Positions 16,872-17,900 of a stretch of DNA of 24,000 bases are shown piece by piece. The number at the start of each line of letters is the position of its first letter. Position 1 is the stretch's first letter. A program made the translations under genes and the position numbers. Origin of the DNA: an uncultured Pseudomonadales bacterium (GTDB taxonomy: Bacteria > Pseudomonadota > Gammaproteobacteria > Pseudomonadales > UBA7434); contig CAJQQO010000316.1 of NCBI GenBank assembly GCA_905480475.1, positions 4,374-28,373 on the forward strand, in the 5' to 3' direction. The notes under the pieces are model-generated. The model ran no database searches and was not told where the DNA came from. It saw only the letters and a list, made by a program, of their open reading frames with translations.

Positions 16872-17900
16872 ATGAATTGGACTTTCGCCCGAAACAGCGC
16901 CAGCAATAACTCAGCCAATAGCGCTAGCCGCACCCGTATGCGCCGAATGCGCAGCGACGGCTTTTCACGTCGGCTTATGCAAGAAAACGCGGTAACACCG
17001 GCTGACTTTATTTACCCGATGTTTGTCGTTGAAGGCAGCGGTATCCGCCAAGCAGTGCCATCTATGCCCGGCGTCGAGCGCGTCAGTTGCGATATTCTCT
17101 GCCAAGAAGCCAAATAAATTGCCTCATTAGGTATCCCCGCCATCGCCTTATTTCCGGTGATTGACGCCAGCAAAAAAAGTCTTAAAGCAGAAGAGGCATG
17201 GAATCCCAACGGCTTGATTCAAAATGTTATCAAAGCAGTAAAAGATGCCGCGCCTGAATTAGGTGTTATGACCGATGTCGCTTTAGACCCTTACACTTCC
17301 CATGGTCAAGACGGCATCATCGACGAGCAAGGCTATGTGCTTAACGACATCACCGTTGCTGCCTTAGTAAAACAAGCCCTATCGCATGCCGATGCCGGTG
17401 CCGATATCGTCGCACCCTCTGACATGATGGACCATCGAATTGGCAAAGTACGCGACACGCTAGAAGCTGCCAATCACACTAACACTAAAATCATGGCGTA
17501 TTCGGCCAAGTATGCCTCAAGTTTTTACGGACCGTTTCGCGATGCCGTTGGCTCCAGCGCCAATCTAGGTAGCGGCAATAAATCCAGCTACCAAATGGAT
17601 CCGGCAAATAGTGACGAAGCGCTACAAGAAATTGCTTTAGATCTTGCCGAAGGTGCCGATATGGTGATGGTTAAACCCGGCATGCCGTACTTGGATATTG
17701 TCTATAAAGTGAAACAACAGTTTGGCGTTCCCACATTTGCCTATCAAGTCAGCGGCGAATATGCCATGTTACAAGCAGCAGTGGCCAATGGCTGGTTAGG
17801 CGATGACGTGATCTCCGAATCCTTATTAGCGTTTAAACGCGCGGGGGCAGACGGCATACTGAGCTACTTTGCAAAAACAGCCGCTGAAAAGCTCAACTAA
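16872..17900 (+). pseudogene. hemB: Porphobilinogen synthase (delta-aminolevulinate dehydratase) interrupted by one in-frame TAA at 17115-17117
   Basis: The tracked ORFs 16872-17117 and 17157-17900 are in the same frame (285 nt apart). Reading through gives …[49 protein letters not shown]…, collinear with P. aeruginosa HemB (…[32 protein letters not shown]…). The total of 341 sense codons compares with 337 aa. It is the Asp-rich Mg-type ([14 protein letters not shown]). Confidence 0.85.

Follow-up and report, generated by a model that had tools for sequence, protein, structure and literature searches.

The window studied here, i.e., the whole stretch of 24,000 nucleotides that was analysed (G000:C316:4374-28373 of the assembly G000), contains a hemB gene whose reading frame is broken by a single TAA codon, and the question that it raises is whether this codon belongs to living cells or is a base that does not represent them. 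The features concerned are the following:

16872..17900, + strand: hemB, encoding porphobilinogen synthase (ALAD) of the Asp-rich, Zn-independent type; 342 codons with one internal stop (PF00490, NF006762, gapless alignment with 1B4K)
17115..17117, + strand: in-frame TAA at codon 82 of hemB, with T at 17115; CAA (Gln) in all other-sample assemblies
16872..17117, + strand: ORF of an 81-aa N-terminal HemB fragment (N-terminal arm plus the beginning of the barrel), matching ALAD model positions 2-61
17157..17900, + strand: 247-aa hemB ORF from the first in-frame GTG past the stop, with a PF00490 match and no upstream Shine-Dalgarno-like motif

The interruption is truly present in the deposited sequence. 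Positions 16872-17900 (+) form a single frame of 342 sense codons and a terminal TAA, in which codon 82 is a lone internal TAA; both ORFs (81 aa and 247 aa) lie in that one frame and 13 sense codons separate the stop from GTG 17157, the same layout that the first-pass annotation of this DNA had described. It had also reported neither frameshift nor decay, and across the full 16872-17900 frame we found no frameshift and no other damage beyond the TAA. Read through the stop, the protein aligns without gaps over 323 residues with the P. aeruginosa ALAD 1B4K (E 1.5e-145) and scores 493 bits against the NCBIfam porphobilinogen synthase model NF006762, passing the family cut-off of 297, and its two halves cover consecutive positions of the Pfam ALAD model PF00490 (2-61, then 79-316 of 317). 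As in the Asp-rich, Mg-dependent P. aeruginosa enzyme, both Schiff-base lysines (K205 and K260 of 1B4K) are kept, in the motifs SAKYAS and MVKPG, and the metal loop is rich in Asp and contains no cysteines, which places HemB in the Asp-rich, Zn-independent ALAD type. Judged by its sequence, the gene is an otherwise ordinary Pseudomonas-type hemB. It departs from 1B4K where Glu74 of that protein corresponds to TAA in the window copy and to Gln82 elsewhere in the species. The stop had been said to replace a variable residue, and residue 82 is indeed Glu in 1B4K and His, Gln, Glu, Arg or Tyr among relatives.

That HemB works as two pieces, or as a truncated enzyme restarted at GTG 17157, is a reading to which we give next to no credence. 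The 247-aa ORF past the stop does hold both catalytic lysines; against this, no Shine-Dalgarno-like or purine-rich motif is found in the 20 bases upstream of GTG 17157, so that efficient restart is unlikely, and a product begun there would be ~95 residues shorter, without the N-terminal arm and the beginning of the barrel that all solved ALADs have. These parts have a role in oligomer assembly, and a split hemB occurs in none of the relatives. The lack of a motif and the lost residues bear out the earlier opinion that a product restarted at this GTG is unlikely to work.

Is the stop shared by other members of the species? Logan contigs of the four best-matching runs (X1-X4), which represent four samples from three studies, cover marine, algal and protist metagenomes and one labelled organism, and range in word depth from 2 to 678, were aligned to positions 16600-18100. 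All four read C at 17115 and hence CAA (Gln), and 17115 is the sole window difference common to the four. The exact 342-aa HemB with Gln82 is on record in 12 contigs (ENA, Tara and Logan). An uninterrupted full-length frame, which this copy of hemB lacks, is found in 12 other same-species contigs and 28 relatives, and an internal hemB stop occurs in none of these 28 relatives. The TAA differs from CAA by one C-to-T change, and since CAA stands in every other-sample assembly of the species, a single base change explains the stop, as had been proposed. The species clearly has an intact hemB.

Closer relatives of the window strain give the same answer. The contigs L021-L026 all have C at 17115, and over 9.9 kb the window carries 13 private SNPs relative to four Gln82 contigs, 17115 among them. 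Compared with the sister contig L021 over 15.2 kb and 14 genes, the window shows 34 synonymous and 16 non-synonymous codon changes, a pattern typical of natural strain variation; in hemB, Q82* is the only change, and the remaining 15 non-synonymous changes fall in neighbouring genes. L026 differs from the window at 17115 only over 1266 nt and has its strain-specific T at 16710, and L025 differs at 17115 and one further site over 1861 nt; the two originate from two different sister samples in the series that also yielded the ENA scaffold_1173 introduced below. Because L025 and L026 are near-identical to the window but read C, the stop sits on a haplotype otherwise seen intact. The nearest strain background from another study, a 55.6-kb contig of X2 with ~159x word depth, likewise encodes an intact 342-aa HemB and has the window's A41T in the adjoining START gene. 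A scan of JGI metagenomes, with either base permitted at 17115, returned no match for the C or the T allele. A chimeric-haplotype origin of the stop was considered and rejected, as no known haplotype carries the T.

The first-pass annotation had put forward four explanations, i.e., a sequencing or assembly error, a very recent inactivation backed by a second hemB or by haem uptake, a laboratory or population variant, and tolerance by read-through or a suppressor tRNA, and it had named orthologs in sister strains as a check, a sense codon at 17115-17117 meaning an error. Run here, this comparison shows CAA in the sister strains, which favours the first explanation. Neither a second hemB nor an ochre suppressor was found in the 88%-complete assembly.

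The T allele itself was sought with a 61-nt query, using every 31-mer spanning 17115, against the indexed Logan runs, and its words occur in one run only, X25 of sample S16, a run flagged as possibly being the source of this DNA. As a k-mer that occurs only once in a run is discarded by Logan (PMC12424806, section 3.1.2), the T must be present in two or more reads or mates of X25. The same TAA and the same split into 81 and 247 aa are present in the ENA scaffold SOLA22-1_SAMEA7060531_METAG-scaffold_1173 (29.7 kb), so that T at 17115 stands in three assemblies: the MAG contig C316, scaffold_1173 and the Logan X25 contigs. Between C316 and scaffold_1173 there are 26 mismatches in the first 1.6 kb and then 1 mismatch in 20.5 kb. 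The left-end mismatches show that scaffold_1173 was assembled separately and along another strain path; two or more close strains therefore co-occur. Since no other indexed run has T words, the three T-carrying assemblies probably rest on the same sample.

Two details of this comparison may be recorded separately. The 26 differences lie in C316:4-1659, inside ftsK and upstream of the window, and give way to near identity. The only difference over the 20.5 kb is at window position 7564 (G000:C316:11937), where the MAG has A and scaffold_1173 and all sister contigs have G, changing NUDIX codon 93 from Gly to Asp; it may be either sample microdiversity or another consensus error.

We think it probable, at roughly 0.65, that the T at 17115 is a base error or a non-representative allele in a low-coverage MAG. 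The hemB of the organism would then be normal and intact, with codon 82 reading CAA (Gln), and the T would be a single-base error or would stem from a molecule that is not representative (e.g., a template that was damaged or duplicated by PCR), entering the consensus via a sample with low strain coverage; we infer both the low coverage and the error mechanism. This explanation is favoured because the T is confined to probably one sample and the same strain background reads C elsewhere, because hemB is otherwise free of decay, and because the MAG contains other lone stops, one of them in the essential single-copy gene map, as described below. Arguing against an error, three assemblers arrived at the T and two or more reads or mates show it, so that an error, if there is one, lies in the library or the reads and not in the assembly step. 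C-to-T is moreover the commonest natural mutation, which also counts against this explanation.

How many such bases should the assembly contain? G000 comprises 3.54 Mb in 376 contigs (N50 12 kb, shortest contig exactly 2500 nt, no Ns, 44.6% GC, completeness 88%) and is read as a binned, fragmented metagenome-assembled genome. The names attached to MetAP homologues (Halieaceae, Pseudomonadales, Oceanicoccus) point to a marine gammaproteobacterium near these groups, and the best named matches among genome contigs reach only about 70% identity. In the S16 runs only ~25% of sampled words are present, which, given the Logan threshold of two, suggests that the strain stands at ~1x k-mer depth per S16 run, i.e., at low coverage. 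The T-carrying assemblies C316 and scaffold_1173 disagree at ~5e-5 per base (the one site in 20.5 kb), and 3.7% of hemB substitutions would give stops; from these two values ~5-6 spurious stops per genome are expected, and at least 6 were found. The assembly is not grossly noisy, which counts against an error: in the ~44 kb around hemB, where 37 ORFs on 46.7 kb of a sister contig were compared with G000, hemB alone has a stop and there are no frameshifts.

These stops came from a genome-wide scan in which 362 adjacent same-frame ORF pairs were listed, the coding potential after each stop was scored, and 54 candidates were read through the stop and tested against Pfam. The post-stop coding score of hemB, 0.74, lies in the top few percent of the 362 pairs. 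In five further genes among the 54 read through, a single Pfam domain continues past a lone in-frame stop:

C99:19736-20362, + strand, stop at 19889-19891 (L131): rnhB (RNase HII), TAA at codon 52; RNase_HII model positions 1-197 of 199 span the stop
C212:12214-12987, minus strand, stop at 12481-12483 (L132): map (type I MetAP), TGA at Cys169; Pfam domain across the stop
C84:2338-3291, minus strand, stop at 3112-3114 (L137): YhgA-like transposase, TAG; Pfam domain across the stop
C21:2-1591, + strand, stop at 641-643 (L170): large serine recombinase, TAA; Pfam domain across the stop
C275:2169-2669, minus strand, stop at 2496-2498 (L179): TetR-family regulator, TAG; Pfam domain across the stop

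For the transposase, recombinase and TetR genes, the stops may mark true pseudogenes or be additional base errors. The case of map is more telling. The gene is single-copy in G000, its TGA replaces TGT (Cys169) and is the sole G000-private change in the gene, and three sister contigs (one Tara, two Logan) have TGT at this position and encode an intact 257-aa protein. Cys169 presumably adjoins a metal-binding His of MetAP, and loss of MetAP is not viable, as known for E. coli map. The map TGA is probably a consensus error. With an essential, single-copy gene privately stopped, the MAG must hold consensus bases that do not represent living cells, and the presence of this stop in the same MAG lowers the case for a living hemB-null strain. 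A common damage signature for the stops was rejected, as the hemB change is C-to-T and that of map is T-to-A. Selenocysteine at the map TGA was rejected on reasoning: a sister strain is one base apart, aragorn finds no tRNA-Sec, and a SECIS element is not created by one base. Among same-frame neighbours, hisI (PRA-CH) and hisE (PRA-PH) are separated by one TAA and 9 codons (G000:C78:6154-6960, minus strand; L141), and may represent either two normal genes or a hisIE fusion that has been split.

Pseudogenes called from an internal stop often prove to be artefacts that depend on coverage (Cooley and Wright 2024, BMC Genomics 25:365, PMC11017572). The hemB stop resembles such spurious pseudogenes (PMC11017572) in being a lone substitution in an otherwise intact, conserved gene seen in one data set only, with near-identical genomes that have the sense codon and with several stops in one low-coverage assembly; it is unlike them in that three assemblers and two or more reads or mates agree on the T. 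No other-sample assembly of the strain or species has the stop, further lone stops occur in the same assembly, and private internal stops of low-coverage assemblies form a known class, to which the hemB stop belongs and for which no new mechanism is needed. The finding is mainly of value for quality control: an annotation pipeline would label hemB a pseudogene, and metabolic reconstruction would then predict haem auxotrophy for the species representative. As lone stops are also present in map and rnhB, the inference of pathway gaps from this MAG needs care.

Decoding of the TAA into full-length HemB, by an ochre suppressor, a reassigned codon or programmed read-through, is highly improbable. 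Nothing speaks for it directly; the reading frame continues undamaged before and after the TAA, and a suppressor could be absent from an assembly in which only 26 tRNAs were recovered. Among these 26, identified with aragorn in the whole 88%-complete assembly, none has the anticodon UUA of an ochre suppressor, and the tRNA-Gln has the normal UUG anticodon. TAA closes 992 of 1645 long ORFs (60%) and is most commonly followed by A; being the main terminator in G000, it leads us to reject code reassignment, for which the annotation, too, had seen no support. The in-frame stop is not conserved, being absent from the 28 relatives and from sister strains, and the other lone stops use all three stop codons, so that no single suppressor explains them. 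Stop-codon recoding is close to refuted.

The remaining alternative is that the stop is real: a very recent CAA-to-TAA nonsense allele carried by most cells of the strain in one sample, forming a hemB-null or leaky lineage that would live on external haem or on a little full-length enzyme produced through misreading of UAA by near-cognate tRNAs (Gln, Lys, Tyr). We regard this as unlikely while granting it some weight, and as a little less likely again that in one coastal time-series sample the TAA is truly the majority allele, with a haem auxotroph or leaky hemB hypomorph emerging there. The occurrence of the T in three assemblies and in at least two reads or mates of X25 speaks for a real allele, as does the variability of residue 82, where any inserted residue probably works, and the stops in the transposase, recombinase and TetR genes may mark ordinary, genuine pseudogenes. 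Set against these points, CAA is found in every other sample, including the sister samples with the same strain background, and the equally private stop in the single-copy, essential map cannot be viable.

The haem genes of G000 bear on the same alternative. The 88%-complete assembly yields a single hemB match, so that a second copy, one of the routes earlier suggested, was not found there. The genes hemA, hemC, hemE and hemH are present without stops, giving no sign of pathway loss. Haem uptake, which had been named as a further check, gave a divided result. A TonB-dependent receptor of 792 aa (G000:C282:1672-4050; locus L031:1345-3723) has its best match in the haem/haemoglobin receptor family TIGR01785, which favours a real allele, but at 257 bits it stays below the cut-off of 317, and HemS was not found in the 88%-complete assembly. 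From this family match the protein is possibly a receptor for haem or another iron complex.

If the allele were real, the strain would resemble the hemB small-colony variants of Staphylococcus aureus, which are hemB-null haem auxotrophs: loss of ALAD would make it dependent on external haem. Aquatic bacteria with haem auxotrophy do exist (Kim et al., 10.1101/2021.01.11.426183), which lends the idea some plausibility. In these natural auxotrophs (10.1101/2021.01.11.426183), however, most or all of the pathway is missing, whereas G000 has intact hemA, hemC, hemE and hemH, shows no clear system for haem uptake and carries an allele confined to one sample; the combination of a missing or decayed pathway with an uptake system, by which natural haem auxotrophs are recognized, does not occur in the 88%-complete G000. 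A true allele would be a small natural case of auxotrophy by one mutation, i.e., a free-living marine gammaproteobacterium caught turning into a haem auxotroph or a leaky hemB hypomorph, which would take up its neighbours' haem via the TonB protein resembling haem receptors or rely on near-cognate read-through at a tolerant residue.

As a separate observation on the pathway genes, hemE (URO-D) is distributed over two contig ends (G000:C14:2682-3602 and G000:C78:40583-40990) with overlapping model coordinates (41-346 and 2-138), as if the assembly had broken within the gene, probably where strains vary.
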